Shown here in pieces: positions 6,104 through 41,951 of a DNA stretch of 41,951 nt; within the stretch, counting starts at the first letter, position 1, and every line of letters begins with the position of its first letter. A program made the translations under genes and the position numbers. This DNA is from Syntrophobacteraceae bacterium. GTDB lineage: Bacteria; Desulfobacterota; Syntrophobacteria; Syntrophobacterales; Syntrophobacteraceae. The stretch covers positions 1 to 41,951 of the forward strand of contig JARKQW010000140.1 of NCBI GenBank assembly GCA_029974695.1. The letters run 5' to 3'. The notes under the pieces are model-generated. The model was not told the DNA's origin, ran no database searches, and saw nothing but the letters and a program-made list of their open reading frames with translations.

Positions 6104-6954
6104 CCTTGCTTCCTTCAGTTTTGCTGAATCCACGCAAAGAAAACCAATGCCAAACTCCGTTTGCCGCAAAACCCGTCTGGGTGCGGAAAAAGACCCGTCA
6201 TGGTTCATGGTTGCCGCGACATTGGGGCGTCAGGAATCCCAGTGCCCGCATGATTTCCAGGTAGCGGTATAGTGAAACAACTCCGCCATTCCAGCAAGAC
6301 CGAAAACATCCCGCCACGGTAGGATGGAGAGTCATGGGTGCTGATCGGGGTGTAGCGGCCCAAGAAAAGGTGGCCGTCCGCATGGAGAATGTACCGAAAG
6401 GGTATCATCGTTTCCATGATGTCGACTTCAACGGTTTCAACATCGACTAGGTCGCCGCGGGACCTGGTGGAATCTTTCGCATCGAAACCAAGAGCCACAG
6501 GGGAGGTATCGCTTCGAACGGTGACAATCTACTGCTGAACGGCAAGACTCCCGGACCCGGACGCCAACCCAGGATCGTGAACGATTCTTCCGGAAACAGA
6601 CATCCAAAGAATGGAGGGTCAAGCCTCCCTCTGCTTAGAGAATGCTTACGCGAGGATTCGTGAACCGGTGAATGCCATCACCATGTCCGGTATCGGCTAC
6701 CGGACTGGATTCCTCTGTCGGCAGCCCCATATGTCATCAAGCGGGAAGATGTGGAGCGGATTGCCCGCATTCTTTCTTGGTGAATTTCAAGGAATCGGCG
6801 CAAAGGAAGGCAGCCGTCGGGCCGACTTCTTGTCGTGGCATGGCATACTGCGTTCACCCTTCAATTGCCCACGGTTTCGTGGTATAGACCTAGGCACCTA
6901 CGGCAGCCGTTCATCCGATGTCGAGTTACACGATTCCGAGAGCATCGGGGCTTC

Positions 6955-10585: not shown

Positions 10586-11027
10586 GTCGGAGGAAAGTCC
10601 CCGACCTGAGATCGTGCGGGTTGCTTCGCGTCCGGTGATTTGGGCACCCGCCCTCTTCCTATCCTCCGGGCTGCCCTCTCCATGACTCCTTGCTCCTATT
10701 TTTGAAACTATCTTCTTGAAGATTCCTCGCGGCTGTGGTACTGGCACATCGAATTCAGCTCCGGAAGCTGAGGAAACTCTCCGGCGTTTTTCCTGAAATC
10801 ATCGACACTTCGACTTCCAACCGAAGCCATGAAGGCTTTACGACCGCAAGGGCCGGAATCCTTCGTGGCTTTTTGTGTTCTATCCAGGTCATGAAGCATC
10901 CCCCCCGGAAGGTCGCTCTTTTTCCTTCTTTCTTGTCCGTTTTTTGATTTCCATTCATCCGGTACCGCTTTCGGAAGGGCCACTCCGGAGCGGGCGCGGC
11001 TTGTATGGGAGAAAGGAGCAGAGTAAG

Positions 11028-13070: not shown

Positions 13071-13328
13071 TGCGATGTCAAAGGTGTCCTACCGGGTCCG
13101 CGACGGGCGGCAGGGTGGGCAAAAGCAGAGGGTTGCCGGTCCCGGATCGCACAACGGAGGCGGATAATACTGCGCCCACCCTACGATTTCAACCGGGCGA
13201 AGCTGAAATGACGGAGCACCCGCAGCGAACGGTGTAGGGTGAAATCCGGACAGTAGGAGGCAGACCGGCGGACGGCGATTCATATCCGCTCTTTCCCGCT
13301 CACCGTTCCCTCCCCTGGAAGGACAGCG

Positions 13329-14366
13329 ATGAATCGGTTCTCTTTTCTTCGGGCGTTTCTGCTGGGGATCGTTCTTGTTTCACCGGGAATCATTCCCCAC
13401 GTGTGCATTGCGTCCGAGTTGGTCGCATCCTCGAGGATCACGGTGACGGATTTTCGCGGGAAGACGATTTCCCTGGACCGCCCCGCCGGGAGGATCGTCT
13501 GCCTTATCGAGAGCGCCCTCAGCGGACTGTACATGTTGGGGGCCGCAGACCGCGTGGTCGGCATCTCCGCCAATGTCTACCAGGGTGACGTTTATCCGTA
13601 CTACGCCGCCATGGACCCGAGAATTGCCGAAAAGAGCCTCCCTGCTCCGGGGAATTGGGATTTCGTCAACATCGAGCGGGTGATTGCCCTCGATCCCGAT
13701 CTCGTCATCATCTGGTCCCGTCAGGAAGAGTCCATACGAGCCGTTGAGGAGCGGGGCATCCCGGTGTTCGGGGTCTTTATCGGGTCATTCGAGGACATAT
13801 ACCGGGAGATGCGCGCCCTGGGAAAGCTGACGGGGACCTCGGAGCGGGCAGGGCAACTGATCGACGCCGCAAAAGAAGAGCTTACGCGGATCGGAGCGAA
13901 AACACAAACCGTCGGCAAGCGTCCGAGGGTCTATTTCATGTGGTCTCAGGGAGAGCTCGAGACATCGGGAAGCAAGAGCACCGTGCACGAACTGATCACC
14001 CTGGCGGGAGGCGAGAACGTGTGCGGAGGCATCGAACAGGAGCACCTGGTGGTGAACATGGAGAGGGTCCTGGCGTGGGACCCCGAGGTCATAGTCCTGT
14101 GGGTCAACGAAAGAAAAGGACCAAAGGACATCCTCGATAGCCCTATATGGCAGGGCGTGCGGGCGGTGCGGACTCAAAACGTCCACGAGCTTCCGGATGT
14201 CTTTTCAAGCGATCTTTGGACCCTCAAGTTCCAGTATGTAGTAAAGCTGCTGGCCGAATGGTGCCACCCGGACGTCTACGGTGAAGCGGACCTGGAGAAG
14301 GAAAGGCGGGAGATCTTCGTGAAGCTCTACGGTGAGAAGATCTTGCCTGCCCTTTCCCCCCGGTAA
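13329..14366 (+). CDS. Periplasmic binding protein, iron-siderophore/cobalamin type (Peripla_BP_2)
   Basis: RBS GGAAGGA. Signal peptide present. RIVCLIESALSGLYMLGAADRVVGIS and IALDPDLVIIW are typical of the FepB/BtuF class. Confidence 0.85.
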   Translation: MNRFSFLRAFLLGIVLVSPGIIPHVCIASELVASSRITVTDFRGKTISLDRPAGRIVCLIESALSGLYMLGAADRVVGISANVYQGDVYPYYAAMDPRIAEKSLPAPGNWDFVNIERVIALDPDLVIIWSRQEESIRAVEERGIPVFGVFIGSFEDIYREMRALGKLTGTSERAGQLIDAAKEELTRIGAKTQTVGKRPRVYFMWSQGELETSGSKSTVHELITLAGGENVCGGIEQEHLVVNMERVLAWDPEVIVLWVNERKGPKDILDSPIWQGVRAVRTQNVHELPDVFSSDLWTLKFQYVVKLLAEWCHPDVYGEADLEKERREIFVKLYGEKILPALSPR

Positions 14367-14400
14367 ACCAGTTCGACTCGCAACCGCCGAGAGGTGTCCT

Positions 14401-15411
14401 TTGAAACGTCCCGCGATCCGTTGGATTCTCTACGGCCTTCCTGTTCCCGTGCTGGTCCTCTCCCTTCTTGTGGGACCCTCCGACGTGATGTCTCCCGGTC
14501 AGGCGGTTTTGTGGATGGCGCGTAGGCTTGCGGGATTCTCCGGGCAGGCGGACGCAAAAGAGGCGCTCGTGAGCGCCATCCTCTGGAACGTGCGTCTTCC
14601 GAGGGTCCTTCTCACCTTTCTGGTAGGGGGCGCCCTGGCTGCGTCCGGCAACAGCATCCAGGCTCTCTTTCGCAATCCGCTGGTTTGCCCCTATCTCTTG
14701 GGACTTTCTTCGGGGGGCGCCTTTGGAGCGGCATTGGCGCTCACCACTTCCTGGATACCCCTCCAGCCCTCGGCTTTTCTCTTCGGGCTGCTCGCCGTTA
14801 CATCGAGCTACCTTCTTGCCCGCGTCAGGGGTCGGATTGCGACGGTTTCTCTCATTCTCTCCGGAGTCATCGTCTCCGGGATCTTCACCTCGCTTCTTAC
14901 CATCCTTCAGTTCTTGACCGACCCCTTCAAGCTCCAGACCATCGTGCACTGGACCATGGGAAACCTCCACAACGCCACCTGGGAGAAGGTACGCTCGGCA
15001 GCCCCTCTCATTCTTGCAAGCACGGCATGTCTCTTCCTTATGCGATGGCGCATGAACGTCCTTGCCCTCGGAGACGAGGAAATGCGGGCGGTGGGACTCA
15101 ATCCCGAGCGGGAAAAATTGCTGCTCATCCTGCCGGCAACGCTGGCCGCATCCGCCTCCGTGGCCGTCGCCGGCGTCATCGGCCTGGCAGGTCTGATGGT
15201 GCCTCACATGGTGCGGATGATGATTGGGCCGGACAATACGCACACCTTGCCCGCATGCTTTGCTTTCGGGGGATCTTTCCTCCTCCTCGTGGACAACCTG
15301 TCGAGAACAACGGCTTCCTTCGAACTCCCCGTGGGGGTGTTCACGACGCTGGCGGGCGGCCCCTTTTTCATCTTTCTTTTGAAAAGGGCCGGGATCGGAT
15401 GGGAAACATGA
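14401..15411 (+). CDS. ABC transporter permease, FecCD/BtuC family
   Basis: Polytopic membrane protein in ORF 14332..15411. A TTG at 14401 after GAGAGG avoids overlap with the binding-protein gene; the 14332 start is also possible. The C-terminal TTLAGGPFFIFLL is typical of FecCD. Confidence 0.8.
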   Translation: MKRPAIRWILYGLPVPVLVLSLLVGPSDVMSPGQAVLWMARRLAGFSGQADAKEALVSAILWNVRLPRVLLTFLVGGALAASGNSIQALFRNPLVCPYLLGLSSGGAFGAALALTTSWIPLQPSAFLFGLLAVTSSYLLARVRGRIATVSLILSGVIVSGIFTSLLTILQFLTDPFKLQTIVHWTMGNLHNATWEKVRSAAPLILASTACLFLMRWRMNVLALGDEEMRAVGLNPEREKLLLILPATLAASASVAVAGVIGLAGLMVPHMVRMMIGPDNTHTLPACFAFGGSFLLLVDNLSRTTASFELPVGVFTTLAGGPFFIFLLKRAGIGWET

Positions 15412-19051: not shown

Positions 19052-22000
19052 ATGAGCCCCATGACGCTGGAACAGTTGAAAGGGAGAATGGCGGACAACC
19101 GCGAATTCCAGGACTATTTGAAGTGGCAGGAAAGCCGGTCGGGCCGGAAGATCCTGGACGACGTGGCCCTGCTGAGGGCCTACCAGGGGTACCTCCTCGA
19201 ACACTTGGGCGATGTCCGGGGCCAGCTCATGGACGAGTCCGACCTTCGCCTCTCCCTGGTGCTGGCCCTCCATTTCAACCCGCTGTTTCAGCAGGAATTC
19301 CGGGCCGGAAATCCCACCCTCGCCCAAAGGTACGACAAGGAAACGGCCGTTCAGAGCTCCGGACCGGTCAACGAGCTCATGGCCCAGGTTTTCAAGCAAT
19401 ATGCGGCCTGGCTGACCCGGGAACTGGACGACACCATGTTCCGGCTCGAGGAGGCCGGGACGGACGAAGTCCTCCAGTACGAGAAACGACGGGCGTTGGA
19501 GCTGCGGTTCGGAAAGCTCTTCGACCGGGAGCTTCGCCTGGCAAAGGAGGAAGGCTACACCCTCCAGCTGGCCGTCCAGGAGAAGGAACAGACCAAGAAG
19601 GAGGTCATGGAGTTCCTCTCCCAGGACGCTTCTTCGCGCGTCACTCGATTTAATTGGGCGATTTTCGGAAACAGCGACAAGACCTCGGCGGGAATCGACC
19701 TCCTCAATCGGGAGATCACACGGTGCAACAGGGTTTCCGGGATCATGCGCGCCATGCTGCCCCGTTACGCCGCTCACCCGAAAAGCCGGGAGATCCTCGA
19801 GACCCAGATCGCCCTGGCCGAATCCCGCCGGACCGAGGCCGAACACTACATCGCCCGGCTCAAGGAGTGCAAGAGGGTCAAGAAGCAGGCCCGGATCTCC
19901 TGGCAGGAGAAGACGGCGGAGTCCGAAGCCTTGCTGAAACAGACGGATGTGGAACTCCTCGGCGTGAGTGAGGACCTCCTGCGCGGGGTCCGGCAGGTGG
20001 TTCCGTCCCTGCGGGAACAAGAAGCGCAGATCGGGACTCGCCTCAAGGAACTGGAGAAGACCGTCCGGGAGATTCCCCGTCTCTATGAGGAGCAGGAAAA
20101 GCAGACGAACGAGCTCGTGCGAATCGAGTCCATCCTGGCAGGGGACCCTATCCGGTTGAAGTACCTTGGCAACCTGGGATTCAAGGCCGGCTCCCTCCCG
20201 GCCCTTCGCCGGTCCATCGCCGAGAGGGCCCGGCTCATCGAGGAGACCGAGCTGCGCCAACGGCACCTGAGCGAGGATCTCGCCTTTCTCAATGCCAAGT
20301 ACAACGCCATGTTCGATCGGACGGAAGCGGCCCTCAACGACCAGCAAGAGCTCAATCGGCTTCGGGCCAAGGCCCACGACGAGCTCCAGTGGCTCCAGAG
20401 CCTTCCCCGGATTCACAGGGCCCTCAATGTTTACTGTTCCACGGCCACCGTGACCTTCGAGCTTTTTCTGAGCATCGGCCAGATCGCTGCGGGCCGGGCC
20501 TGCGGTCCCGTCGGGGGGACGGCCGTCGCGGCCATGGGCATCGCCGGCATGCCCATCACCTATGGATTGAGCCTTCCTCTTTCGGGGGCGCTCCTCACCA
20601 ACATACAGCCCTACGACACGGGGCAGCTGGGCATTTCCCTCAAACTGGGCTTCTCCTGGGGTGCGGACTTCCAGCCGGCCACCAAGGACAGCCTGGAAGC
20701 GAGCGTGGGCATGGCCATTGTCTACGATGCGTCCCTCCAGGTGTCCGACACCCGCGGGTTCTCGACGGTGAGCACCATCACCCTGGCTACGACGGCGGAG
20801 GCCGCCATTCCCGGCGCCCTTCGGGCAGCCATCGAGATGGAGCTCATCAAAGAGAAACGGGTGATGACTTTCAAAGATGTCTATCACTGGGCGGCCTGGA
20901 TCGGCCAGAAGTGGGCCAACCTCCGCGCCTGGGCGGTGGCGGCCCGGCTTTACCGGGGAGGAGGGACCTCTCAACCGACGGCGGAGGACCTCAAGCGCCT
21001 TCGGGAAGTTGCCGACATCTCCCTCAAGAACGACAAGCCGACCCGGGACATGCTCGAGAAGGTCTTCAAGTACATGGGGGAACCCATTCTGCGGACGGAG
21101 TGCAAGGAGCTCTTTCCGCACATAGGAGCGGAAATCTCGGCGGCGGAATTCTTCAGTCTCAAAGGAGCCCGGGAGCGCAGGTCCGAGCCCAAGTTCATCC
21201 GGAGGAACAGCGACATCAAGACGGGGGAAGTATACGACGAAGAGAGAAAAGGGGATCAGTGGAGCCGATCTTTGACCGTGGGAGCGGGAATCCAGGTGCA
21301 GGCGGATTATTCCAATGTTGAAAAGGACCCCAATCCCGACAACGTAGGGGAGTCCCTGACCTTCACCATCTCCCTGCCCATATTCGATCAGAATGCCCAA
21401 TGGATCTCGACCCCGGCAATGGATCCCTCGAAGGGGGCCATCGGCACCTGGGTGCAGAGTCACCTGGCGCCTGCGGCCAACAAGATATCGAACTTCACGA
21501 ATCCGGGGGTGTTCAATCTCTTCAAGAGTTCCCTGGCCACGAATCCTTTCCTGAGTCTCAGCACCGGCCTGGCCCTGGGCACCGTCCAGGTAGCCCTCTT
21601 TCTTTCGACCCTCACCAAGCGTCCGGCCCCCGACGGCAAGACCGGCAAATGGGTCCTTTTTTACTGGCGCCCCGTTTTCAGCACGGCCACCGAAATCCAG
21701 AGGACCGTTCCCCTGGGCTACGGGTTCAACATGGTGCTGGGAGGAAGCGTGTCCTTGTCCCGCACCTACCGGGAACAACTGGGGGACAACACCATCGTGT
21801 ACCTCCAGATCGTGTACAACGGTCTCATGAATATCTCCCTGCCCGGCGACGACGGCAATCCCAGACCCCCCGAGGCCCGCGGTCCGGCGCTCTGGAAGGA
21901 ATACGTGGACACGCAAAAGAAGACCATTTGGAGGATGATGCACAACATCACCCTTCCCCATACCTGGATTGCCGCCGAGGTGAATGACCGGGAAGGAGGC

Positions 22001-23698
22001 GCGAAACTCATCGCCGACCTCAAGAGAATCATGCCCGCGCCCGCCCGCCGTTCCTCCAAGGGGCTGCCCTCCCAGCATAAAGCTCCCTACGTGGACGTGG
22101 ACGCCCCGGAGTCCTACCCCGACTTCAGCCAAACGTTGTTTGACAAGGCTTTTGACCCCTTTCAAAGGCACCTCGAAGATTTTCGCAAAAGCGATTACCT
22201 CACCCACAAGAACAAAGACTGGCATCGCATCCCCATCCAGGGAGGCACCTTCAATTGGTCCATGAATCCCATCGTCATTGCCGGGGAACTCTACCGAACC
22301 CACACGACCCAGTACAAGCTCGAGAAGGGCGTGGTGGACGCAAGAACCGCCCTGGGTCATCGAAAGGGGGCCTCCCAACAGGTCCTGGCGGACGTCAAGA
22401 TGGTGCCCGACGAGCAGGCCCCCAACTGCATGTTGTGCGGGGTCGCCTTCAGCTTCATTCGCCGTCGGCATCACTGTCGCGAATGCGGGAAGGTCTTTTG
22501 TGCCGATTGCTCGAGCCACAACATCGAGCTTCCCCACAGGAGCCAATTCAAACCCGTCCGGATCTGCAACACCTGCTATGCGCGGCTCACCGCGGCGCCC
22601 AAGCAGCCTGCCCAGGCCCCGAGCGGCCACAAAGACCCCGGCGCCGCCGACCATGGGGAACCTCTCCCGCAGGTTCGGAGCCCGGTGAGCCAACCCCACA
22701 GGGAAGGCCTCCCCGCAGCGACCCACAGCCCGGTGAGCTCTCCTCAGAAGACGGGGATGTTGACATCGGCCTACGTTTCCTCGCAGGTTCCCGGAAAGGA
22801 AAGCCTGCTCACGTCCTTCCGCCGAAGCCCGGAGGCTCCCAGAGGGGAAAGCCCGCTCTCATCGTCTGGTTCCAACCTGGGCGCCCTCGATCCAGACGGC
22901 GGCAGGGTGCAGGCCCCGGTGGTGCGGGGAGGGGAGGTCCGATCGGAGTGGGGAGAGGGGAAAGACGAAATCACCGTGCTGGACGAGATGGAGCACGAGC
23001 GGTGGTGGAGCACTCGGATCGCCAGGCCCGTTCCCAGCAGCGCGGACCGCCAGGCCTACATCGATTTCGCCGTTTCCGATGCGCAGGCAGCCCAGGCAAT
23101 GAGAGAGGAAAGCCCGGCAAGCCGGGAGGCTCAGAAAAGCAAGGGCAAAATCTCTCCTGGCGGCAGGTCCTCGAGACTGAAAGGAGTGACGGTTGCCGAA
23201 GAAGGAAGGAATCCCATTGTCGGCAAGGAGTTGACCAATTACTTCGACATTACGGATGTCTCGGCGGATGGGAATTGCCTGTTTCGATCCATGGCCGTCG
23301 CTCTGCAAAGGCCCGAGAATCAGCACAAGGCCTATCGGCGCCTGGCGGTGGAACATATCTTCCTGCACCCGGCGGATTTTGAGACCGTGTACCAGGGCAA
23401 CGTCCCGGCCTATCTTTACACCATGTCGGAGACGGCACGGCACCCCGAAGACAAGGCACGGTGGGGTGGTTCCCCGGAAATCCTCGCGCTAAGCCGGATT
23501 CTGAAGCGGGAAATCATCGTCTATGCCTGTACCTTCGATTCCCCCACCGCCTGGGAGCTGAACCGGACGGTCCTGTTCGTGCAACAGCACGCCATGGGTG
23601 ACGGTCCCTTCAAGCCACCCCGGGAGGCGGTCCCCATCTACATCGCAAACCAGGGGGGAAACCACTACGTCTGCCTGAAGCCCAAGGCCCGGCGGTAG
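19052..23698 (+). CDS. 1548-aa multidomain protein: coiled-coil N-terminus, bilobed hydrophobic segment, unknown beta-rich core, FYVE zinc finger, P/S-rich linker, C-terminal OTU cysteine protease
   Basis: ATG 19052 follows AAAGGA. The amino-acid composition is balanced and protein-like (K, N, Y, W, F, I), unlike the 1402-aa antisense ORF, which is G/R/P/L-rich. FYVE: MVPDEQAPNCMLCGVAFSFIRRRHHCRECGKVFCADCS...VRICNTCY. OTU: DVSADGNCLFRSMAVAL ... GGNHYVCL. Confidence 0.9.
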   Translation: MSPMTLEQLKGRMADNREFQDYLKWQESRSGRKILDDVALLRAYQGYLLEHLGDVRGQLMDESDLRLSLVLALHFNPLFQQEFRAGNPTLAQRYDKETAVQSSGPVNELMAQVFKQYAAWLTRELDDTMFRLEEAGTDEVLQYEKRRALELRFGKLFDRELRLAKEEGYTLQLAVQEKEQTKKEVMEFLSQDASSRVTRFNWAIFGNSDKTSAGIDLLNREITRCNRVSGIMRAMLPRYAAHPKSREILETQIALAESRRTEAEHYIARLKECKRVKKQARISWQEKTAESEALLKQTDVELLGVSEDLLRGVRQVVPSLREQEAQIGTRLKELEKTVREIPRLYEEQEKQTNELVRIESILAGDPIRLKYLGNLGFKAGSLPALRRSIAERARLIEETELRQRHLSEDLAFLNAKYNAMFDRTEAALNDQQELNRLRAKAHDELQWLQSLPRIHRALNVYCSTATVTFELFLSIGQIAAGRACGPVGGTAVAAMGIAGMPITYGLSLPLSGALLTNIQPYDTGQLGISLKLGFSWGADFQPATKDSLEASVGMAIVYDASLQVSDTRGFSTVSTITLATTAEAAIPGALRAAIEMELIKEKRVMTFKDVYHWAAWIGQKWANLRAWAVAARLYRGGGTSQPTAEDLKRLREVADISLKNDKPTRDMLEKVFKYMGEPILRTECKELFPHIGAEISAAEFFSLKGARERRSEPKFIRRNSDIKTGEVYDEERKGDQWSRSLTVGAGIQVQADYSNVEKDPNPDNVGESLTFTISLPIFDQNAQWISTPAMDPSKGAIGTWVQSHLAPAANKISNFTNPGVFNLFKSSLATNPFLSLSTGLALGTVQVALFLSTLTKRPAPDGKTGKWVLFYWRPVFSTATEIQRTVPLGYGFNMVLGGSVSLSRTYREQLGDNTIVYLQIVYNGLMNISLPGDDGNPRPPEARGPALWKEYVDTQKKTIWRMMHNITLPHTWIAAEVNDREGGAKLIADLKRIMPAPARRSSKGLPSQHKAPYVDVDAPESYPDFSQTLFDKAFDPFQRHLEDFRKSDYLTHKNKDWHRIPIQGGTFNWSMNPIVIAGELYRTHTTQYKLEKGVVDARTALGHRKGASQQVLADVKMVPDEQAPNCMLCGVAFSFIRRRHHCRECGKVFCADCSSHNIELPHRSQFKPVRICNTCYARLTAAPKQPAQAPSGHKDPGAADHGEPLPQVRSPVSQPHREGLPAATHSPVSSPQKTGMLTSAYVSSQVPGKESLLTSFRRSPEAPRGESPLSSSGSNLGALDPDGGRVQAPVVRGGEVRSEWGEGKDEITVLDEMEHERWWSTRIARPVPSSADRQAYIDFAVSDAQAAQAMREESPASREAQKSKGKISPGGRSSRLKGVTVAEEGRNPIVGKELTNYFDITDVSADGNCLFRSMAVALQRPENQHKAYRRLAVEHIFLHPADFETVYQGNVPAYLYTMSETARHPEDKARWGGSPEILALSRILKREIIVYACTFDSPTAWELNRTVLFVQQHAMGDGPFKPPREAVPIYIANQGGNHYVCLKPKARR

Positions 23699-31677: not shown

Positions 31678-32865
31678 TCAGATGAAGCGCTTGTGGGTTT
31701 CTTTAAGATACTTCTCTTCCAGGAGCAGGGTGATCTTCTTGACGATGTTGCGCCGAATATCGAGCTCGACGGGGAGATTGGGGTCCTGGTGGGCTTCGTT
31801 GACCCGGGTTCCCACCACGAAGAAGATGACGTCGCTGTCCAACAGGATCGAAGCGAGGGTCGTGGCGGCGTTGGACCGCATGAGCTCGGGTTTTTGTCCG
31901 CGTTCCAGGATTTCGGAAACCTTGCTCAGGGTCAGGGTGCCTTCGGTGATGAGGTCGATTCCTTCCATTTCCGAAGAGGGGGGGATCTCGGGATCCAGGT
32001 TCTCGAGGTCCATTTTGATCTCCCGGTCCAGTTCCCGTCCGACGATGGAAGCGGTGGTCCCGCCGCAAATGACGATCCGTCCGGTGAAGGAACGCACCAG
32101 GTTGGCCAGTTCGGCGTCCTTGGATTCGGAAAACGGGGGACCCGTAAGGACCAAGAGGGTTCGTGGGTGTCGCAGGTACATGACCCCGCAGGAGATGTCG
32201 TCCTTGGGTTCATAGGCATCGATTTGTCGGGCGCGGAGGGCAATCTTCATGGCCAGTTGACGGGAGGAGATGCCGTCCTGCCAACTGATCCACTTGAGGG
32301 CCTGTTCGATGACCCGCCTTCGTCCCCAGCCGATAGGATAATCCGGCCTCCCCATGCCCGCCTGACTGACGCCGTCGGAGAAGAAAAGGACCCGGTCTCC
32401 TATGTGCAGGTCGAACTCGGAAAAAACCACCTCCCGGTCGTGCCACCTCTCGAGATGGATGGGGGTCTTGGGGACGGAGACGGGTTCTCCGTCCCTGAGC
32501 AGCACGTATTCCGGGTTGCCGTGCTCGATGATGCGGGCGTGCCCGATGCTGTTGACGTCCACGATGGTGAAGGTGGAATAGCTGATCATGCGCACTTTGC
32601 ATACCGGAAGGGTGTCCATGATCACCTCGGCCGTCTCCCGCACATCGGCGTAATTCGAAATATACTTGATGGCCATGGTGGCCGTGAGGGTAGCCAGGAC
32701 ATTGGCCTTGACGCCGCTGCCCAGGCCGTCCGAGAGTACGGCGATGACCCGGTTCTCCTCCCGGATCTTCTGCATGAGGAAGACGTCTCCCGCCACGAAT
32801 TGCTTGTTCTTGCAATACTGGTAATGGTCGATGTCCAGGAAGAAATCCCTCGTGGTCTTGATCAT
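31678..32865 (-). CDS. PP2C-type (SpoIIE family) serine phosphatase with extra C-terminal domain
   Basis: VLSDGLGSGVKANV and VLFFSDGV are metal-binding Asp motifs. ATGA overlap with the hydS stop. Confidence 0.85.
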   Translation of the reverse strand: MIKTTRDFFLDIDHYQYCKNKQFVAGDVFLMQKIREENRVIAVLSDGLGSGVKANVLATLTATMAIKYISNYADVRETAEVIMDTLPVCKVRMISYSTFTIVDVNSIGHARIIEHGNPEYVLLRDGEPVSVPKTPIHLERWHDREVVFSEFDLHIGDRVLFFSDGVSQAGMGRPDYPIGWGRRRVIEQALKWISWQDGISSRQLAMKIALRARQIDAYEPKDDISCGVMYLRHPRTLLVLTGPPFSESKDAELANLVRSFTGRIVICGGTTASIVGRELDREIKMDLENLDPEIPPSSEMEGIDLITEGTLTLSKVSEILERGQKPELMRSNAATTLASILLDSDVIFFVVGTRVNEAHQDPNLPVELDIRRNIVKKITLLLEEKYLKETHKRFI

Positions 32866-34583
32866 TCCAGCTCCGGCGTTGTCATGGAATGGATGATGGA
32901 GTTCAAAATCACCTCGGTTTCGGCGGCATTCTCACCCAACAGGTAAGCGATTTGTTGAACTGTGGCCAAGTTCTTCTTGATGACGTCCTGAGCTTTGTGA
33001 ATCATGGCCTCTTTGTGAATCGTGGGCTTGGTGATGTCCTGGAAGATCCCGCAGGCCACCCGGTTTTTCTCAATGGAAAAGATGTCGATGTGGAAGACCG
33101 ACTTCTTGTAGCGCAAGTCGCGGTTGAGGATGTCTTCTCCCTTTTCCAGGACGGTCTTGAAGAGGGAATAAAAGGGGGCGATCTCCCGCAGAGGCACTCC
33201 TTCCAGGCCGGGGGAGGCCTTGAAGGCCTTTTCCACGTCGGCTCCCAGGATCTTGGCGAAATTGAGATTGCATTCGATGATCTGGAGTTCCTCATCCACC
33301 AGCACGATGCCGCTGGGGGTCTTTTCCATGAGGGCATTGGTCTTCTTCTGGGCCAGCTTTCGCATGTAGGCCACGCACATGACCTTTTCGGCCTTGCCGT
33401 CGATGAGGGCCTTGGCAAGCTCACGGCAGTTGTCGTAGCCGCAGCCTCCGCAGTTGAGTTCGTCTTCCGGGCCGTACTTGTTGAGGGTCTGGAGGGTCTG
33501 GCGAATGATGCTGTCGCTGTATTCCTTCACGGGCACCGGGTCCGGTTGAAAGCCTTTCCAAACGGGGGCGGCTAGAGGGCGTGGGATCATGGACTGGGGA
33601 TAGCTTGCGTAATGGATGACCTGGTAGCGCTTCCAGGCGGTGGCGTTGCGCTGATTGGCCTTGGGACCGTTGACGCACCCTCCTTCGCAGGCAAGCAGTT
33701 CCAGGAAGAGGGGGTGGGTGAGGCGCATCTCGCCGAGCCCCGCCAGGGCTTTGTGAATGTTGCGAATGCCGGAAAAGGACATGCATTCCGCTTCCATGAC
33801 GCTGCACCCGGCCTTCACTCCCGCCACCATGCCGCCGTCGATGGGGTACAGGGCACCCTCCTGGGCCGAGGAGGGAACAAAGACGTCATCCTCTCCTCTC
33901 TCTGCCGTGTCGAAGGAAAAAGGCTCGCTCATGAACCATCGTCGGAGGTCCTCGAAGGTGAGGGCGACATCCAGCAGGTGGGGGTTCGCGTCCGCCTCTC
34001 CCTTTTTGGCGATGCATGGGCTGAAGAAGACGATCCCGATATCCGGGCCGTAGGTCTCCCGCAGCAATTGGCCGTGGGCCAGGACCGGGGAGACGATGGG
34101 AGACAGGCAGGCGGCATACTGGGGATAATATTTGCCCAAGAAGGTGACCACCACCGGACAGGCCGTGGATATGACCACTCGAGGCGTACGATCTTGAAGC
34201 AAAGCGGCAATGCTGCCCGAAACCCTTTCGGCCCCCAGGGCGGTTTCGGAGACGCCGTAAAACCCCAGACGCTTCAGGGCCCGAATGATCGCGTGGGCCG
34301 GAACGTCCGGGAACTCACTGATGAAGGACGGAGCCAGGGAGGCAAAGACCTTTTTCTTCTCTTTGAGAAGGGTCTGGGCCCGTTGCAGGTCGTCGCGCAC
34401 ATGCTTGGCTCCGTTGGGACAGATCTCCACACAGTGGCCGCACAGAATGCATAACTGGGGGATGACCGCCGCGCAGGCGTTTTCGACCTTGATGGCCTTG
34501 ACGGGGCACTCGCGAATGCACTTGAAGCAGTCCTGGCATTCGGTCCTCTCCGTATAGATGATGGGAGCGGGCAGAAGGGTCAT
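32862..34583 (-). CDS. Sensory-type [FeFe]-hydrogenase homologue (HydS/HfsB-like, group C): 2x[4Fe-4S] + H-domain + Cys motif + PAS
   Basis: N-terminal CQDCFKCIRECP and CILCGHCVEICP. H-cluster motifs: L1 STACPVV (canonical TSCCP), L2 SPCIAKKGE, L3 ELLACEGGCVNG. Then CGGCGYDNC and a PAS-like C-terminus. Confidence 0.85.
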   Translation of the reverse strand: MTLLPAPIIYTERTECQDCFKCIRECPVKAIKVENACAAVIPQLCILCGHCVEICPNGAKHVRDDLQRAQTLLKEKKKVFASLAPSFISEFPDVPAHAIIRALKRLGFYGVSETALGAERVSGSIAALLQDRTPRVVISTACPVVVTFLGKYYPQYAACLSPIVSPVLAHGQLLRETYGPDIGIVFFSPCIAKKGEADANPHLLDVALTFEDLRRWFMSEPFSFDTAERGEDDVFVPSSAQEGALYPIDGGMVAGVKAGCSVMEAECMSFSGIRNIHKALAGLGEMRLTHPLFLELLACEGGCVNGPKANQRNATAWKRYQVIHYASYPQSMIPRPLAAPVWKGFQPDPVPVKEYSDSIIRQTLQTLNKYGPEDELNCGGCGYDNCRELAKALIDGKAEKVMCVAYMRKLAQKKTNALMEKTPSGIVLVDEELQIIECNLNFAKILGADVEKAFKASPGLEGVPLREIAPFYSLFKTVLEKGEDILNRDLRYKKSVFHIDIFSIEKNRVACGIFQDITKPTIHKEAMIHKAQDVIKKNLATVQQIAYLLGENAAETEVILNSIIHSMTTPELE

Positions 34584-34589
34584 TCCTCT

Positions 34590-34853
34590 CTACTCCTGGA
34601 TCTTCAGGTGTTGGTCGAGCAACGCAAGGATCGTCGCGGAATCCACGCAGTTGAAGACCTGGCCGTCAACGGTCAGATTGGGTCCGTCCTTGCACAACCC
34701 TTCGCATAGATGTCCTTTCATGACCACCTTGCCGCAAAGACCATGGCGCTCGATGTATTCCTTGATGAGTTTGATGTTGCGCTTGTTGCCTCTGGAAAAG
34801 CATGAACTGCCCATACAGATGGCCAGTTCCAGGGGTTGTTTCGTGCCGCTCAT
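34590..34853 (-). CDS. Thioredoxin-like [2Fe-2S] ferredoxin (NuoE-like)
   Basis: Cys pattern C-x4-C ... C-x3-C (CMGSSC ... CEGLC). ATGA overlap with the hydE stop. Confidence 0.8.
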   Translation of the reverse strand: MSGTKQPLELAICMGSSCFSRGNKRNIKLIKEYIERHGLCGKVVMKGHLCEGLCKDGPNLTVDGQVFNCVDSATILALLDQHLKIQE

Positions 34854-35953
34854 GGTTGTTCTCCAAATTGTTCAACACCCATAAGGATCTTGCTCCCGGG
34901 GACCCTCAGGCATCCTGGAGACCGCTTCCCCGGGCCTTTGCCGACGGTACGTCCCATGGACCGTATGCGGTCCCGGATCTCACCTGCATCGAACGAGGTC
35001 CGACCGGTCCCTGCCTTCTTGGGGTAGATTTCGTACCTGCTGCGGTATGGATGGGGGGTGAGGTTCGGCATGACGACGTTGGCGCCCCGCTCGAGGCCCA
35101 GTTCGTACCCGCGCTCGGGATTCAGGGTCGCCAGGGCGGTCGTGCTGGGAATGTTCGCCTCGGGGCAAAAAATCCTGGACAATGCAATTACCTTGGTCAC
35201 CATGAGCTCCGTCGCGGGGACCTGTTCCCCGTCGGTCCTCGAGAATCGCCGGGGAGAGGTGCCCAGAGGCGTTGCCGGGTGAGGCAGAAACGGACCCACC
35301 CCGATCATATCCAGATCCAACGACCGGAACAACAGGATATCCTCCACCAGGCTGCGGTAACTCTGACCGGGGATTCCGATCATGACGCCGCTGCCGATTT
35401 CATACCCCAGCCCTCGAAGGGACCGGAGAATGGATAGGCGGTCCGAGGGGATCGAGGAAAGGGAAGGGTGGATTCGTCGGTACAGGGCGGCATCGGACGT
35501 CTCGAATCGCAGGAAGTAACGGTCGGCTCCGGCTTCCCTCCACAACGCCAGTTCGCCGTAGGACCGTTCTCCCAGGCTCAAGGTCACGGCCAGGGAGCTT
35601 TCCTTCTTGAGTTCCCGGATTACCGAGGCCACCCAGTCTGCGGAACATCCCGGGTCTTCGCCTCCTTGCAACACCACCGTGCCGAATTGCAGCCTCTGCG
35701 CATGGCGGGCGCTCTCGAGGATCTCCCGGCGGCTCATCCGGTAGCGCTCGATGAGGGAGTTGTCCGCGCGCAACCCGCAGTAGAGGCAACGCCGCCTGCA
35801 GAAGCTCGAGATCTCGATCAATCCCCGCAGGTGGACCTCGTCTCCCACGGTCCGCCTGCGGACGGTGTTCGCCCATTCCCAGAGGGATTCGATCTTGTCC
35901 GGGTCTTCCTCCCGGAGCCATCCGAGCAGTCCGTCGCCGTCCATGGGCTTCAT
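34850..35953 (-). CDS. hydE: [FeFe]-hydrogenase H-cluster radical SAM maturase HydE
   Basis: Lies in ORF 34850..36229. ATG 35953 (MKPMDGDG) overlaps the hydF stop (ATGA). Radical SAM CRRRCLYC. The length of 367 aa and the biotin-synthase-like core are typical of HydE. Confidence 0.85.
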   Translation of the reverse strand: MKPMDGDGLLGWLREEDPDKIESLWEWANTVRRRTVGDEVHLRGLIEISSFCRRRCLYCGLRADNSLIERYRMSRREILESARHAQRLQFGTVVLQGGEDPGCSADWVASVIRELKKESSLAVTLSLGERSYGELALWREAGADRYFLRFETSDAALYRRIHPSLSSIPSDRLSILRSLRGLGYEIGSGVMIGIPGQSYRSLVEDILLFRSLDLDMIGVGPFLPHPATPLGTSPRRFSRTDGEQVPATELMVTKVIALSRIFCPEANIPSTTALATLNPERGYELGLERGANVVMPNLTPHPYRSRYEIYPKKAGTGRTSFDAGEIRDRIRSMGRTVGKGPGKRSPGCLRVPGSKILMGVEQFGEQP

Positions 35954-37185
35954 CGCGGTTCCTTGAGGTCCCGATAGGTCTCCAGTGCGGCCGGAAAAGG
36001 CTCCAGCGCCCGCTCCAGGATCCCCAGACTGTAGGCGATCACGACCCCGTAATTGGTGATGGGAACCCCGGCCTGTCGGCAACGAAGGATCCGGCCGAGC
36101 ATCTCCCTGCGATTCCACATGCAGGCCCCGCAATGAATCACCAGCCGGTAGGGAGAAAGATCTTCGGGGAAGTCGTGTCCCTGAACGTGCCGGAACTTCA
36201 GCCGGGAGCCCACATGTCGGGTGAGCCACTGGGGGATTTTGATCCGCCCGATGTCCTCCCCGATGGGATGATGACTGCAGGCCTCGGCAACGAGGACCTG
36301 GTCCCCGTTCCTGAGTTCTTCCACAGCCATGGCTCCCCGGACCTGGGTGATGAGGTCCCCCTTGAATCGAGCGAAAAGAATCGAGAAGCTGGTCAAAGGG
36401 ATCCCCGGAGGCACCACGGCGGCCACCTCTCGGAAAGCCTGGGAGTCGGTGATCACCAGTCGCGGCGGGTTCCTCAGCTGTTGAAGGGCCTTTCGCAGTT
36501 CCCGATCCTTCACCATCATGCAGTAGGCATCGCTGTCCAGCAGGTCTCGAATGGTCTGGACCTGGGGCAAAATGAGCCGTCCCTTGGGGGCTTCCTTGTC
36601 AATGGGAACCACCAGGACCGCGAGTTCTCCCGCTCCCACCAGGTCGCCCGCAATGGCGGGGTTGTCGATGAGCTCGGCCGGGGCCTGGTCCAAGAGAGCC
36701 CGGCGCAGCGCCCCCAGCCCCTCTCCGGTCAACGCGCTCACCCGCACCACGGGAATATCGGGCGGCAAGGAGGCTGAAAGGGAGTTCGAGTTCCCCGGAC
36801 TGAGGTCGCACTTATTGACGACGATTACCCCGGGGATCTTCCGGGATTGCAATTCTTGCACCACGAGCTCTTCGAAGGTTGTCCAGGTGCCCGCTTCGGT
36901 CACGAGGACTCCCAGGTCGGTCCGGTCGAAGACCTGGCGCGTCTTGCGGGTGCGCAGGTCCCCCAGGGCCCCCTCGTCGTCCAGGCCCGCCGTGTCGATG
37001 AAGAGCACCGGCCCCAGGGGGAGCAGTTCCATGGGCTTTTCCACCGGGTCGGTGGTGGTGCCCGCCACCTCCGATACGATGGCGACCTGCTGGCGTGTGA
37101 TCGCATTGAGCAGGCTCGATTTGCCCACGTTGCGCCGCCCGAACAACCCGATGTGGATGCGCATGCTCTTGGGTGTCTTCTGCAT
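35950..37185 (-). CDS. hydF: [FeFe]-hydrogenase maturation GTPase HydF
   Basis: ATG 37185 (MQKTPKSMRIHIGLFG). G1 GRRNVGKSS, G3 DTAG, G4 NKCD. C-terminal FeS motif CSHHP...HCGAC. Length 411 aa. Confidence 0.85.
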   Translation of the reverse strand: MQKTPKSMRIHIGLFGRRNVGKSSLLNAITRQQVAIVSEVAGTTTDPVEKPMELLPLGPVLFIDTAGLDDEGALGDLRTRKTRQVFDRTDLGVLVTEAGTWTTFEELVVQELQSRKIPGVIVVNKCDLSPGNSNSLSASLPPDIPVVRVSALTGEGLGALRRALLDQAPAELIDNPAIAGDLVGAGELAVLVVPIDKEAPKGRLILPQVQTIRDLLDSDAYCMMVKDRELRKALQQLRNPPRLVITDSQAFREVAAVVPPGIPLTSFSILFARFKGDLITQVRGAMAVEELRNGDQVLVAEACSHHPIGEDIGRIKIPQWLTRHVGSRLKFRHVQGHDFPEDLSPYRLVIHCGACMWNRREMLGRILRCRQAGVPITNYGVVIAYSLGILERALEPFPAALETYRDLKEPR

Positions 37186-37364
37186 GAAATCCCCGTCCTG
37201 CGGTTCTTGTTCGCCGGATGCCCTCGGCATTTGGCCGTCGGCAAGGAGGGATGGGTTCAAGGTCCCATCCGGGTTTTGCGGTGGGGCCCCCGAAACGGCA
37301 CACGCCCTCGGGGGCGGATGAACCCTTCGAACCGTGTCGAGAGAATCCGGCGGGATCCGCGCCG

Positions 37365-38789
37365 TCAAATGTAGACGTCCCGATGGCCCTTGCGAACCCG
37401 ATCCAGCATTTTTGCGGCCGTTTTCCCGTGCCGGTCGTCCATGCGGTCCAGATGGGTCCGGATGAGCTTCTCGCCTGCGGCCAGGGTTTCCGGGGAGGCA
37501 TAGTCCAGCAGGTACTCGAGAAACGTCGACAGGGCGTTGGGATCGCACCGGTGCTTGATGTCCCCGGGCTTGGCCAGCTCCATGAAATCCGCCCCCGTTC
37601 GCCCCAGGCGATAACAGGCGGTGCAGAAGGAAGGAATGTAGCCCATGGCGGACAGGTCGGCAACGACCTCGTCCAAGGAACGATGGTCCCCCAACTGGAA
37701 CTGGGCGTCCTCCTCATGAATCCCGTCGGAATATCCCCCGGGGTTGGTGCGGCTCCCGGCGGAGATTTGGGAGACTCCCAGGGCGAAGGTGTTTCTCCGG
37801 ATTTCCGGCGTCTCCCGCGTGGACATGATCATGCCCGTGTAGGGCACTGCCAGGCGGAGAATGGCCACGAGCTTTTCGAAATCCCGGTCGCTCACGGGAT
37901 GCGGGGGATTGTCGGCGATTTCGGAACCCGCGGCGGGCTCCATGCGGGGAACACTGATGGTATGGCACCCCACCCCGAACGTGCGCTCCAGGTGTTGAAT
38001 GTGCTGCAGGAGGGCCAGGACCTCGAAGCGCCAGTCGTAAAGCCCGAAGAGCACCCCCATTCCCACGTCGTCGATTCCGGCTTCCATGGCGCGGTCAAAG
38101 GCCGTGATGCGCCATTCGTACTCCCGCTTGCGCCCCTTCGGGTGCATCCGTGCGTAGGTTTCCCGGTGATAGGTTTCCTGGAACAGCTGATAGGTCCCGA
38201 TTCCCGCGGCCTTGAGCTCCCGGAACTCTTCGAGGGTGCAGGGGGCCAGGTTCACGTTGACCCTGCGGATCTCTCCCCGGTGAACCCGGGTCTTGTAGAC
38301 CGTGGCAATGGAGTTGAGAATGTAGGAAAACCCCTCGGCAGGATAGCCTTCCCCCGCCACGAGCAGGAGTCGCTTGTGGCCCTGCCCCACCAGGATTTCC
38401 ACTTCCCGGGCGATTTCTTCCTGGGAGAGGGCTCGGCGGCGGATGTCCCGATTGCCGGCCCGGAAGGCGCAATAGAGGCATTCGTTATGACAGTAGTTGG
38501 AAATGTAAAGGGGAGCAAACAAAACGATGCGGGGGCCGTAGACGGCTTCCTAGACGGATCTTGCCGTGGAGAAGAGCTCCCCGATCAGCTCGGGGTCCCG
38601 GACGGACATCAGGGCGGCCACTTCCTCGGGGTCGAGCCCTTTCAGTTCCGTTGCCCGGGCAAGAATCTCGCGAACCCGCACGGGATCGTCCCCGGGATGC
38701 GGCCCCTCGAGAGCGGCCGCAACGGTAGATTCATTCACGAAAGAGCTGCTTGTGTTCGATCGAACCATAACCTTCACCCGAGCGGTCAC
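37365..38789 (-). pseudogene. hydG: HydG radical SAM maturase interrupted by one in-frame TAG (38552..38550)
   Basis: Track ORFs 38550..38789 and 37365..38522 are in the same frame. Read-through gives ...ELFSTARSV*EAVYGPRIVLFAPLYISNYCHNECLYC. Radical SAM CHNECLYC. The C-terminal CTAC-x22-C auxiliary cluster motif is intact. Total 474 codons, the normal HydG size. Confidence 0.8.
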
Positions 38790-38862
38790 ACGTCAATTGT
38801 GACAGCGATCGCAAGCAAGAACTGAAGAACCACCGGGACGGGGAACCGAGTCAATCGCTGTG

Positions 38863-38890
38863 ATTTTATTCCCTTTGACAATTCTTTCAA
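38863..38890 (-). promoter_or_regulatory. Candidate sigma70-type promoter for hydG
   Basis: Minus strand: TTGAAA (38890..38885), 16-nt spacer, TAAAAT (38868..38863), about 70 nt upstream of the hydG start. Confidence 0.3.
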
Positions 38891-39026
38891 GACGTTCCTG
38901 CGGAAAAAGCGGTGTCGCATTCGCTCCCCATGCCCCATGAAATTCTCGAAAAGGTATGGTAGGTATAGGGGTGCGCACGCGGGCCTTGTCGGTGCCGTCC
39001 AACAACCCCGGGGGACGATTGCTTCC

Positions 39027-39536
39027 ATGAAGACGATGCAAAGTGGGCTCATCCGTTGGCGGACGATCTTGAGGTCGGCAGGATTCGCCCTTCTGCTCAC
39101 CGGGATCGCTCCCCTCTTTTCCGGTCCCGCCTGGGCCATCCAGTCCCATCCCGCCCCCGAGGGGCTTTATGCCCATCAGCTGGCTCATTTTCTCTTCATC
39201 GTGGCCATGGCCCTTCTTTCCTACTGGCTGCAGGTGAATCACTTCACGGTCCAAAGAGGTTGGCGCCTCATTCAGGTCTCCTGCCTCCTGTTTCTTGTCT
39301 GGAACGGGGTGGCGATCCTGGGCCATTGGTCGGAGGAAATGCTTCCTGCCGGGGTTCTGTTGGGGAATTCCGACTGGGGCCAACGGATCCTCTTCCAGGG
39401 AAACCCCGCGGCCTACCTCTACTTTGTCCTCAAGATGGACCACCTGGTTTGTGTGCCCGCCATGGCTTGCCTGCTCCTGGGAATTCGCAGCCTCTACCGG
39501 GAGGCCCTCAAAGAGCGGGGACCCTCCCATGGTTGA
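39027..39536 (+). CDS. Hypothetical integral membrane protein
   Basis: Lies in ORF 38937..39536. ATG 39027 (MKTMQSGLIRW). About 4 hydrophobic helices. Its 3' end overlaps the kinase start by 8 nt. Confidence 0.6.
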   Translation: MKTMQSGLIRWRTILRSAGFALLLTGIAPLFSGPAWAIQSHPAPEGLYAHQLAHFLFIVAMALLSYWLQVNHFTVQRGWRLIQVSCLLFLVWNGVAILGHWSEEMLPAGVLLGNSDWGQRILFQGNPAAYLYFVLKMDHLVCVPAMACLLLGIRSLYREALKERGPSHG

Positions 39537-41079
39537 TTCCTGGTCCATGGCCCCCGTCTGGTTTACCGACGTGGGGGGGTCGGCCCTCATGATCCTTTTG
39601 TCCCTGGGAGCCGTGGTGTATGCCGTTCGCCTGGTCAGGGTGCAGCCTTCCAATGTCCTTTGGACCTATCTCCTCTGGCTCACCGCGGCCCTCTGCGGTT
39701 TTGCCCTGTCCCGGGGAGTGGGGCACATCGCCAAGAGACTCCTATTGCTCATGGAGATGCCGGATATCTGGGCGGTATTGAAGCCCTACAGCGGCTCCTT
39801 CAATACCCTCGCCTTCGCGGTGGTGGCCGCCATTACGTTCTTTTTCCAGCGGGTGCACCGGATCCACACGGAGATCCTTCGGGACCAGGAGGCCCTGGAA
39901 CGGGCTTCAGCCGAAGTGATGCGCCTCAACCTCGGCCTGGAATCCCTGGTCGAGCAGCGGACTCACGAACTGAGCCGATCCGAGAGGAGATATCGCCGCA
40001 TTTTTGAAGGTTCCATGGACATGATTTTCGTCCTGGACGCAGAGGCCCGCTTCGTGGACATCAACGGCGCAGGGGTCGAAGCCCTGGGGTATTCGTCTCC
40101 CGAAGAAGTGGTGGGAAAGGTTTCCTTCGAACAGGTCTTTGCCTGCCGTGCCCAGTACGGGGAACTCATGGGCGATCTTTCGTCCCGGGGGTACGTCCAG
40201 GCCCGGGAGTGCACCCTGGTTGCCCGGGACGGCTCCGAACGGTTCATCCTTCTCAGCGCCACCGTGCGGAAGGACGACCGGGGCCGTGTCCAGAGCTTCG
40301 AGGGCATCGCCAAGGACGTGACCGCCCGGGTCCACATGCAGCGGCAGCTCCAGCAGGCAGACAAGCTGGCTTCCCTGGGACAGATTTCCACGGGAATCGC
40401 CCATGAAATCAACAACCCCCTGGGAATCATGTTGGGCTACACCCAGCTGCTCCTTCGAGACATGCAGCAGGGGAGCCAGCTCCACGACGATCTCAAGACC
40501 ATCGAAAAACACGCCCGCAACTGCAAGGTTGTGGTGGAAGATCTGCTCAAGTTCGCCCGGGGCACCCGAACCCGCCGCACATCGGTCAATGTCGGCCAGT
40601 GCCTGCGCGAGGTGTTGTCGCTGCTGGCACACCAGTTCGAACTGGACAACATCCGGATTCAAACGGAGATCCGGGAGGATTTGCCGGAGCTCCGAGCCGA
40701 TGGGGAGAAGCTCAAACAGGTCTTCATGAACCTCCTTATGAACGCCAAGCAGGCCATTTCCCAATCGGGCACCATCACCGTCCGGACCCGGCCGGACCCG
40801 CGGGAGGACGCCCTCCTGGTTTCCATTTCCGATGACGGTTGCGGCATTTCTCCCGAGAACCTGTTCAAGATCTTCGACCCGTTCTTCACCACCAAACCCG
40901 TGGGGGAAGGGACCGGCCTGGGACTTTCGGTGAGCTACGGAATCATTCAGGACCACCAGGGGCGTATCGACGTCTCGAGTCGCCCCGGCAGGGGAAGCAC
41001 CTTCACCGTGGTCCTCCCGGTGAGCCCCCCCGCGAACGAATCCCCCGGCTCCTCTCCCGTGGAAAGAAGACAACCATGA
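39529..41079 (+). CDS. Membrane-bound PAS sensor histidine kinase
   Basis: Lies in ORF 39295..41079, start ATG 39529. About 4 TM segments, a coiled coil and a PAS domain (RRYRRIFEGSMDMIFVLD). H-box ISTGIAHEINNPL, N-box MNLLMNAKQA, G-boxes DDGCGI and GTGLGLS. Confidence 0.9.
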   Translation: MVDSWSMAPVWFTDVGGSALMILLSLGAVVYAVRLVRVQPSNVLWTYLLWLTAALCGFALSRGVGHIAKRLLLLMEMPDIWAVLKPYSGSFNTLAFAVVAAITFFFQRVHRIHTEILRDQEALERASAEVMRLNLGLESLVEQRTHELSRSERRYRRIFEGSMDMIFVLDAEARFVDINGAGVEALGYSSPEEVVGKVSFEQVFACRAQYGELMGDLSSRGYVQARECTLVARDGSERFILLSATVRKDDRGRVQSFEGIAKDVTARVHMQRQLQQADKLASLGQISTGIAHEINNPLGIMLGYTQLLLRDMQQGSQLHDDLKTIEKHARNCKVVVEDLLKFARGTRTRRTSVNVGQCLREVLSLLAHQFELDNIRIQTEIREDLPELRADGEKLKQVFMNLLMNAKQAISQSGTITVRTRPDPREDALLVSISDDGCGISPENLFKIFDPFFTTKPVGEGTGLGLSVSYGIIQDHQGRIDVSSRPGRGSTFTVVLPVSPPANESPGSSPVERRQP

Positions 41080-41951
41080 AGGACCCCTCCATGTCCCTGC
41101 CTTCTTCGGCAACGCCGCCCGGGCCCCCGGACCCCGATTCCGACCGGGACGACCCGAAGCCCGTATCCAGGCTCCTCATCGTCGACGACGAGGAAGACAT
41201 GCTCCGGCTGCTCAAGCGCAGTCTTCCGCCGGACCTGGCCTGCGAGGTGGAAACGGCCTCCAATGCCCTCCGTGCCTTCGAAGTGCTCGAGGCCGCACCC
41301 TTCGATGTCGTCCTGGCCGACATACGCATGCCCGGCATGGACGGCATGGAATTCCTGGAGCGCCTTCAAAAAGAGCACGGCGAAATCACCGTCGTGATGA
41401 TGACCGCCTACGGAACCATCGATCTTGCCGTTCAGGCCATCAAGAGCGGGGCCTATGATTTCATCACCAAGCCTTTCGAACATGAAAAGCTGGTTCACCT
41501 GCTGGAAAGGGCCTTGGAACGAAGCCGGCTGGTTCACGAAAACCTGCGCCTCCAAAGACGGCTTCGGGATCACGAGAGCTTCCAGGAGATCATCGGTGCC
41601 GGGTCCCGGATGCAGAAGGTCTTCGAAATGGTTCGCCTGGTCAGCAAAACGGACGTCACGGTGCTCATCACGGGGGAGTCGGGTACCGGAAAAGACATGG
41701 CGGCCCGAGCGATTCACCGGCTGAGCCATCGGAGCGCCGGGGCGTTTGTGACCATCAACTGCCCCAACCTTCCCGAGAATATCCTCGAGAGCGAACTCTT
41801 CGGATACCGGAAAGGCGCCTTCACTCATGCCACCCAGGACAAGAAGGGTCTTTTTCTCGAGGCCCAGGGAGGCACGATTCACCTGGACGAAATCGGGGAC
41901 ATTTCCCTCACCCTCCAGAGCAAGCTCCTGCGAGTCCTCCAGGAAAAAGAA
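41076..41951 (+). CDS. Sigma54-dependent (NtrC-family) response regulator; 3' end cut by window
   Basis: Not in the ORF track because it has no stop in the window. ATG 41076 overlaps the kinase stop (ATGA). Receiver domain LLIVDDEEDM...DVVLADIRMPGMDG...TAYG. AAA+ domain Walker A GESGTGKD, ESELFGYRKGAFTHA, Walker B IHLDEIGD. Confidence 0.9.
   Translation, partial: MKDPSMSLPSSATPPGPPDPDSDRDDPKPVSRLLIVDDEEDMLRLLKRSLPPDLACEVETASNALRAFEVLEAAPFDVVLADIRMPGMDGMEFLERLQKEHGEITVVMMTAYGTIDLAVQAIKSGAYDFITKPFEHEKLVHLLERALERSRLVHENLRLQRRLRDHESFQEIIGAGSRMQKVFEMVRLVSKTDVTVLITGESGTGKDMAARAIHRLSHRSAGAFVTINCPNLPENILESELFGYRKGAFTHATQDKKGLFLEAQGGTIHLDEIGDISLTLQSKLLRVLQEKE

Follow-up and report, generated by a model that had tools for sequence, protein, structure and literature searches.

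The hydG gene of an uncultured Syntrophobacteraceae species is interrupted, in the contig analysed here, by a single in-frame amber codon at a position that is occupied by lysine in every other HydG that we examined. From the assembled sequence and its comparison with relatives, we infer that the base is present in cells and that the TAG arose very recently, as a nonsense mutation in a single strain (probability about 0.55). The other reading that carries appreciable weight is a sequencing, consensus or assembly artefact, while decoding of the codon and a split but active HydG are both improbable. Throughout, the window refers to the whole stretch of DNA that was analysed (41,951 nucleotides).

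A single amber codon interrupts an otherwise intact hydG

The interrupted gene and the codons discussed below are as follows.

37365..38768, minus strand: hydG, radical SAM H-cluster maturase (identified by translation, TIGR03955, Pfam and 99% identity to the intact protein P0001)
38550..38552, minus strand: in-frame TAG, codon 73 of hydG (CTA on the plus strand)
38520..38522, minus strand: TTG, codon 83 of hydG, the first in-frame start past the TAG, which begins the 385-aa truncated product (P0126) called for the contig

Read from 38789 to 37365, the minus strand translates as one frame with one internal stop, flanked by the peptides DPELIGELFSTARSV on its N-terminal side and EAVYGPRIVLFAPLYISNYCHNECLYC on its C-terminal side, exactly as the initial annotation had reported. 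Two starts lie upstream in this frame, GTG 38789 and ATG 38768, and the TAG is in frame with both. The start at ATG 38768 was taken from the annotations of conspecific genes, hence the numbering of the TAG as codon 73; the gene then has 467 codons and ends with TGA at 37365..37367. The conspecific annotations thus give 467 aa, in place of the 474 codons proposed earlier.

Apart from the stop, the gene has the features of a complete maturase. The 394 codons that follow the TAG score 502.8 bits against the NCBIfam model for HydG (TIGR03955; equivalog cut-off, 312.15 bits) and cover profile positions 77 to 468 of 470. Radical_SAM and BATS domains are detected with Pfam, and the translation contains both the radical SAM CX3CX2C motif (CHNECLYC) and the C-terminal CX2CX22C motif (CTAC-x22-C), in agreement with the earlier description of HydG as otherwise intact with both cysteine motifs. 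In all conspecifics, hydG is an uninterrupted frame for one polypeptide of about 470 aa; here it is not.

The lysine at codon 73 is invariant among HydG proteins

The column of codon 73 is occupied by Lys in all 124 of the best protein homologues, down to 66% identity, and the region of residues 73-82 includes a K-E-x-I-Y-G-x-R stretch that is invariant in these sequences. The residue is also conserved in both solved HydG structures, PDB 4WCX (ARYIKEEIYGNRIV) and PDB 4RTB (ARKVKEEIYGKRIV). At the nucleotide level, we examined 80 loci from GTDB species representatives, of which 4 did not match the motif pattern; the 76 readable loci, from many phyla, all have a Lys codon (AAG in 58 and AAA in 18). 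The best HydG match in this set comes from the Syntrophobacteraceae MAG Ch74 (76% identity). No stop was found at the site among the orthologues examined, including the 80 species-representative loci. The alignment of the TAG with a conserved Lys, one transversion away from AAG, had been proposed in the initial annotation and is borne out by the homologues, structures and loci alike. Because the Lys is invariant in every data set, a stop or a recoded codon at this site is without precedent.

Conspecific contigs carry AAG

Comparison of the orthologous codon in close relatives, which the initial annotation had suggested, gave AAG in all eight conspecific contigs, whose nucleotide identity to the window is 99.6-99.8%. 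These contigs originate from three NCBI assemblies, one ENA assembly, three JGI metagenomes and one Logan run; seven (L001-L007) are contigs encoding HydG haplotypes, and the eighth (L008) was found by a DNA pattern scan. The base that creates the TAG is position 38552, a plus-strand A and thus a T on the coding strand, and is private to the window. A single A-to-T transversion on the coding strand separates it from the AAG (Lys) of the relatives. Given that AAG is found in 8 of 8 conspecifics, the TAG is either a single very recent change or an error.

The alignments with six relatives are gap-free over 33126..41951 (8.8 kb), and the lone 1-base indel occurs in the longer alignment of L001 with the window. 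Within hydG, the window differs from the conspecific contigs by 6-9 bases. Stop aside, its protein is the same as the haplotype P0124, and its differences from L006 and L007 are synonymous only. A protein search also returned HOV86986.1 (P0001), the HydG of a Syntrophobacteraceae MAG, which is 99% identical, intact (467 aa) and has K73. The 90% cluster of this protein holds five full-length haplotypes, with K in 5 of 5, plus the 385-aa P0126, which is the window's own call from TTG 38522. The TAG allele was not seen elsewhere: an exact-pattern scan that admitted both alleles returned one metagenome contig, with AAG, and nothing in the species-representative genomes, and neither truncated product (385 aa and 72 aa) had a further record in exact look-ups.

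The remaining genes of the operon are undamaged

The hydG gene is the first in a minus-strand cluster, with hydF, hydE and a HydS-type hydrogenase gene directly downstream on the same strand.

35950..37185, minus strand: hydF, GTPase maturase, intact (TIGR03918, 560.9 bits, profile positions 1-392 of 392; no internal stop; length as in relatives)
34850..35953, minus strand: hydE, radical SAM maturase, intact (TIGR03956, 294.6 bits, cut-off 254.6; no internal stop)
34590..34853, minus strand: gene for an 87-aa thioredoxin-like 2Fe-2S protein (gene calls and a weak Pfam match in relatives; identical to L001), ending in a genuine TAG stop
32862..34583, minus strand: HydS-type [FeFe] hydrogenase, 573 aa, intact (Pfam Fer4, Fe_hyd_lg_C (H-domain), C-terminal FeS and PAS; no internal stop)
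31678..32865, minus strand: SpoIIE/PP2C-type phosphatase, the last gene of the cluster, intact (Pfam SpoIIE, E 3e-10; identical to L001)

We take this layout to be that of a sensory group C (HydS-type) [FeFe] hydrogenase locus in the Greening/HydDB scheme. Disruptions in other genes of the operon, which the initial annotation had regarded as a sign of plain pseudogenisation, were looked for gene by gene against the conspecific L001 and none was found; an internal stop occurs in hydG only, and the other genes are undisrupted and of the same length. The earlier statement that hydE, hydF and hydS show no decay therefore stands, with no internal stops and with lengths as in relatives.

Several further features of the operon were observed. 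At 34584..34592 (minus strand), the TAG of the 2Fe-2S gene is followed 6 nt on by the hydrogenase start in the same frame, so that amber read-through would fuse the two proteins; relatives share this layout, and the same-frame junction is probably a coincidence. The spacer between hydG and hydF (37186..37364, minus strand) measures about 180 nt by the profile-supported hydF start, and an alternative 472-aa HydF call made by some pipelines overlaps the hydG stop. Across 34850..37185 (minus strand), a fairly high share of the differences in hydF and hydE among conspecific strains changes amino acids. Relative to L001, hydF has 11 nucleotide differences and 6 amino acid changes, two of these in the doubtful N-terminal extension, and hydE has 7 nucleotide differences and 4 amino acid changes. 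The hydrogenase and phosphatase genes, unlike hydF and hydE, are nearly invariant among conspecifics. This pattern, in small numbers, may be a hint that the maturases of the species are under relaxed constraint.

Other features of the window

A 1548-aa ORF with a TAG stop (19052..23698, plus strand) encodes a FYVE zinc finger (Pfam E 1e-21, aa 1117-1180) and an OTU cysteine protease/deubiquitinase domain (E 2e-12, aa 1405-1496), and has no match in PADLOC. The presence of two eukaryote-type domains in one ORF is unusual for a free-living Syntrophobacteraceae-like bacterium. A defence-island-like gene pair occupies 3..6208 (minus strand) and consists of a type IIG restriction-methyltransferase/DrmMI-like gene of more than 1080 aa that runs off the contig end (PADLOC REase_MTase_IIG, E 3e-171) and a gene for a 988-aa SNF2 helicase with a best match to DISARM DrmD (E 1.5e-106). 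At 10875..15411 (plus strand), genes for a TonB-dependent receptor, a Peripla_BP_2 binding protein and a FecCD permease are all intact and, by their predicted products, form a cluster of the iron-siderophore or cobalamin uptake type.

Private substitutions of the window: natural variation or artefact

The window represents a haplotype of its own, with 13-30 differences from the other contigs over the 5718 bp common to all. Six changes in these 5718 bp are private to it.

37228 and 37250: substitutions in the hydG-hydF spacer
36733: synonymous substitution in hydF
39510: missense substitution in a small hypothetical gene
38561, minus strand: transversion in hydG codon 70, synonymous for Arg (AGA here, CGA in all relatives)
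38552, minus strand: nonsense substitution in hydG codon 73

The private SNP rate, about 7e-4 per base, is of the size that natural strain divergence predicts, and four of the six changes look neutral (two intergenic and two synonymous). No motif common to the window-private SNPs, such as a methylation-type context, was seen. Adapter sequence was also looked for around the TAG, where we found scattered 5-mers only and judged them coincidental.

We regard an artefact as a serious possibility, if short of an even chance. The organism would then have AAG, and the contig would be wrong at one or two bases within 10 nt, possible sources being thin coverage at the position, the poor end of a read, or an artefact of templated or chimeric origin. 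The positions of the private changes speak for it. Both 38552 and 38561 are transversions and lie 9 nt apart, with 38561 upstream on the coding strand, and two of six private SNPs would fall within 9 nt with a probability of about 0.03 under random placement; such clustering points rather to a local error or to one poor read. The A-to-T change also converts CCGTCAA to CCGTCTA, an exact copy of a heptamer 12 nt downstream, which fits misalignment on the nearby repeat, whether in the cell, the library or the assembly. The invariance of the residue in every HydG examined points in the same direction, as selection should purge real mutations and not errors, and so does the lack of an independent sighting of the TAG allele or of either truncated product in other samples. 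If the allele is real, a null allele of a strictly conserved maturase as the population consensus needs relaxed selection or hitch-hiking.

The character of the contig argues against an artefact and favours a nonsense mutation. Aligned with six relatives, it shows no indel in 8.8 kb, and no gene besides hydG is interrupted, so the assembly gives no impression of being full of errors. Most of the other private differences look filtered by selection, as natural strain variation would be, and strain divergence of the size seen in the window usually far exceeds the rate of substitution errors in a short-read consensus, which would count here if the contig came from short reads. The lack of further damage to hydG and the synonymous character of its differences from L006 and L007 fit a very young mutation. 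Because hydG, hydE, hydF and the hydrogenase gene show no further decay, the event is very young if it is real. The gene shows one mark of a nonsense pseudogene, namely, a premature stop relative to intact close orthologues that is due to one base change (AAG to TAG) private to the window, and would be such a pseudogene if the base is present in the organism's DNA.

Decoding of the amber codon is not supported

Alternatively, the amber codon might be decoded and full-length HydG still made, through a pyrrolysyl-tRNA(CUA), should the genome carry pylTSBCD, through an amber suppressor tRNA of natural origin, or by a high basal level of read-through. We consider this very improbable. Three observations speak for it: pyrrolysine (Pyl) is a lysine derivative and the TAG stands at a Lys site, hydE, hydF and hydS are undamaged, and Pyl systems are present in some Desulfobacterota (PMC1976440; PMC9723677). 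The distribution of the codon stands against it. The TAG is conserved in no orthologue, even at 99.8% identity, and all readable orthologues have AAG or AAA, so that neither the UAG shared among orthologues that marks a Pyl gene nor the conserved leaky stop that marks read-through is found here. Since genomes that are 99.8% identical carry AAG at the site, the TAG is not an evolved Pyl or read-through site.

The use of TAG as a normal stop likewise speaks against decoding. It ends 8 of 28 greedy gene models in the window and about 5 of 17 well-supported genes, one of which is the 87-aa gene of the hydG operon. Genome-wide reassignment of TAG was rejected on these grounds. The base following the hydG TAG is G, and a G in this position would make for fairly efficient termination by release factor 1 (RF1). 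The 113 nt from the TAG on fold no better than shuffled sequences (z = −0.11), and a PYLIS-like or read-through structure was rejected on this result and because relatives carry AAG in the same sequence. No tRNA gene was found in the 42-kb window, and no protein encoded there reaches the cut-off of a Pyl family in a profile search; HydE scores 124.9 bits against the PylB model (cut-off, 348), as expected from radical SAM paralogy. In addition, the known bacterial Pyl proteins are methylamine methyltransferases from a few lineages, including a deltaproteobacterial worm symbiont (PMC1976440; PMC9723677). HydG lies outside the families known to use Pyl, which are these enzymes and a few others, and no such use is documented for maturases.

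The narrower proposal, that a Pyl system or a natural amber-suppressor tRNA of the strain decodes the new UAG at Lys73, perhaps as pyrrolysine, and that a full-length, working HydG persists, has a slighter chance still; if true, it would be a case of an H-cluster maturase that tolerates a newly arisen amber codon. Of the four explanations offered in the initial annotation, a nonsense mutation and an error thus remain, while read-through or suppression and pyrrolysine insertion find no support in the window or its relatives.

A split or re-initiated HydG, in which the 385-residue product from TTG 38522 retains activity with or without the 72-residue N-terminal fragment, has next to no chance of being correct. 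In its favour, the radical SAM motif, the BATS domain and the CX2CX22C motif all lie in the C-terminal ORF. Against it, the TTG is preceded by GGCCCCCGCATCGTT, in which we read no Shine-Dalgarno-like sequence, and residues 73-82 with the invariant K-E-x-I-Y-G-x-R stretch would be missing. All 124 homologues and the 80 species representatives have this region within one polypeptide, and the split arrangement is absent from conspecifics.

Predicted consequences of a nonsense mutation

If the TAG is a nonsense mutation, as we propose, an A-to-T transversion on the coding strand at window position 38552 would have turned Lys73 (AAG) into amber (TAG), and RF1 would end translation of HydG after 72 residues. 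Re-initiation would have to use the TTG at codon 83, which had been put forward earlier as the re-initiation site and is indeed the first in-frame start after the TAG; no ribosome-binding site accompanies it, and a protein begun there would be without the 82 conserved residues of the N-terminus. The allele is therefore predicted, from its sequence, to yield no working HydG. HydG makes the Fe(CO)2CN synthon of the H-cluster. Without it, the synthon would not be formed, and the co-encoded sensory [FeFe] hydrogenase, as well as any other in the cell, would be left without the 2Fe subcluster. Given this established role, the strain would be unable to activate [FeFe] hydrogenases.

If the TAG is real, [FeFe] hydrogenases, including the adjoining H2-sensing HydS-type enzyme, cannot be matured in one strain of this uncultured species of Syntrophobacteraceae, which would add a small point on strain-level variation in the hydrogen sensing or metabolism of syntrophs. 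An error would illustrate that internal stops in metagenome-assembled genomes need conspecific comparison before recoding is invoked. The hydG TAG raises no new question about the genetic code.

Comparison with known systems

The HydG proteins of Thermoanaerobacter italicus (4WCX) and Carboxydothermus hydrogenoformans (4RTB) are collinear with the HydG of the window over the full length and share its CX3CX2C and CX2CX22C motifs. The likeness to TIGR03955 HydG extends to gene order, as the window also has hydG-hydF-hydE beside an [FeFe] hydrogenase. The difference from known HydG is confined to codon 73, where an invariant Lys codon is replaced by TAG. As in group C HydS-type loci with a PP2C phosphatase, the hydrogenase of the window combines an H-domain with FeS and PAS domains at its C-terminus, and a SpoIIE/PP2C phosphatase gene comes after it.

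The Pyl genes mtmB, mtbB and mttB of Methanosarcina, Desulfitobacterium and the Olavius delta1 symbiont resemble this hydG in having an in-frame UAG in an otherwise intact enzyme gene. In those genes, however, the UAG is conserved in orthologues, the products are methylamine methyltransferases and pylTSBCD is present (PMC1976440), whereas the hydG UAG is found in one contig and in an unrelated family, with no pyl gene in the window. An ordinary internal-stop pseudogene is similar in more respects: it has one premature stop relative to intact conspecific orthologues, the stop is confined to a single strain or assembly, and there is no sign of a recoding apparatus. The hydG of the window differs from such pseudogenes in having no secondary decay, so it is extremely young or not real. 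The hydG TAG is of a known kind, whether it marks a pseudogene with an internal stop or a wrong base in a metagenome-assembled contig.
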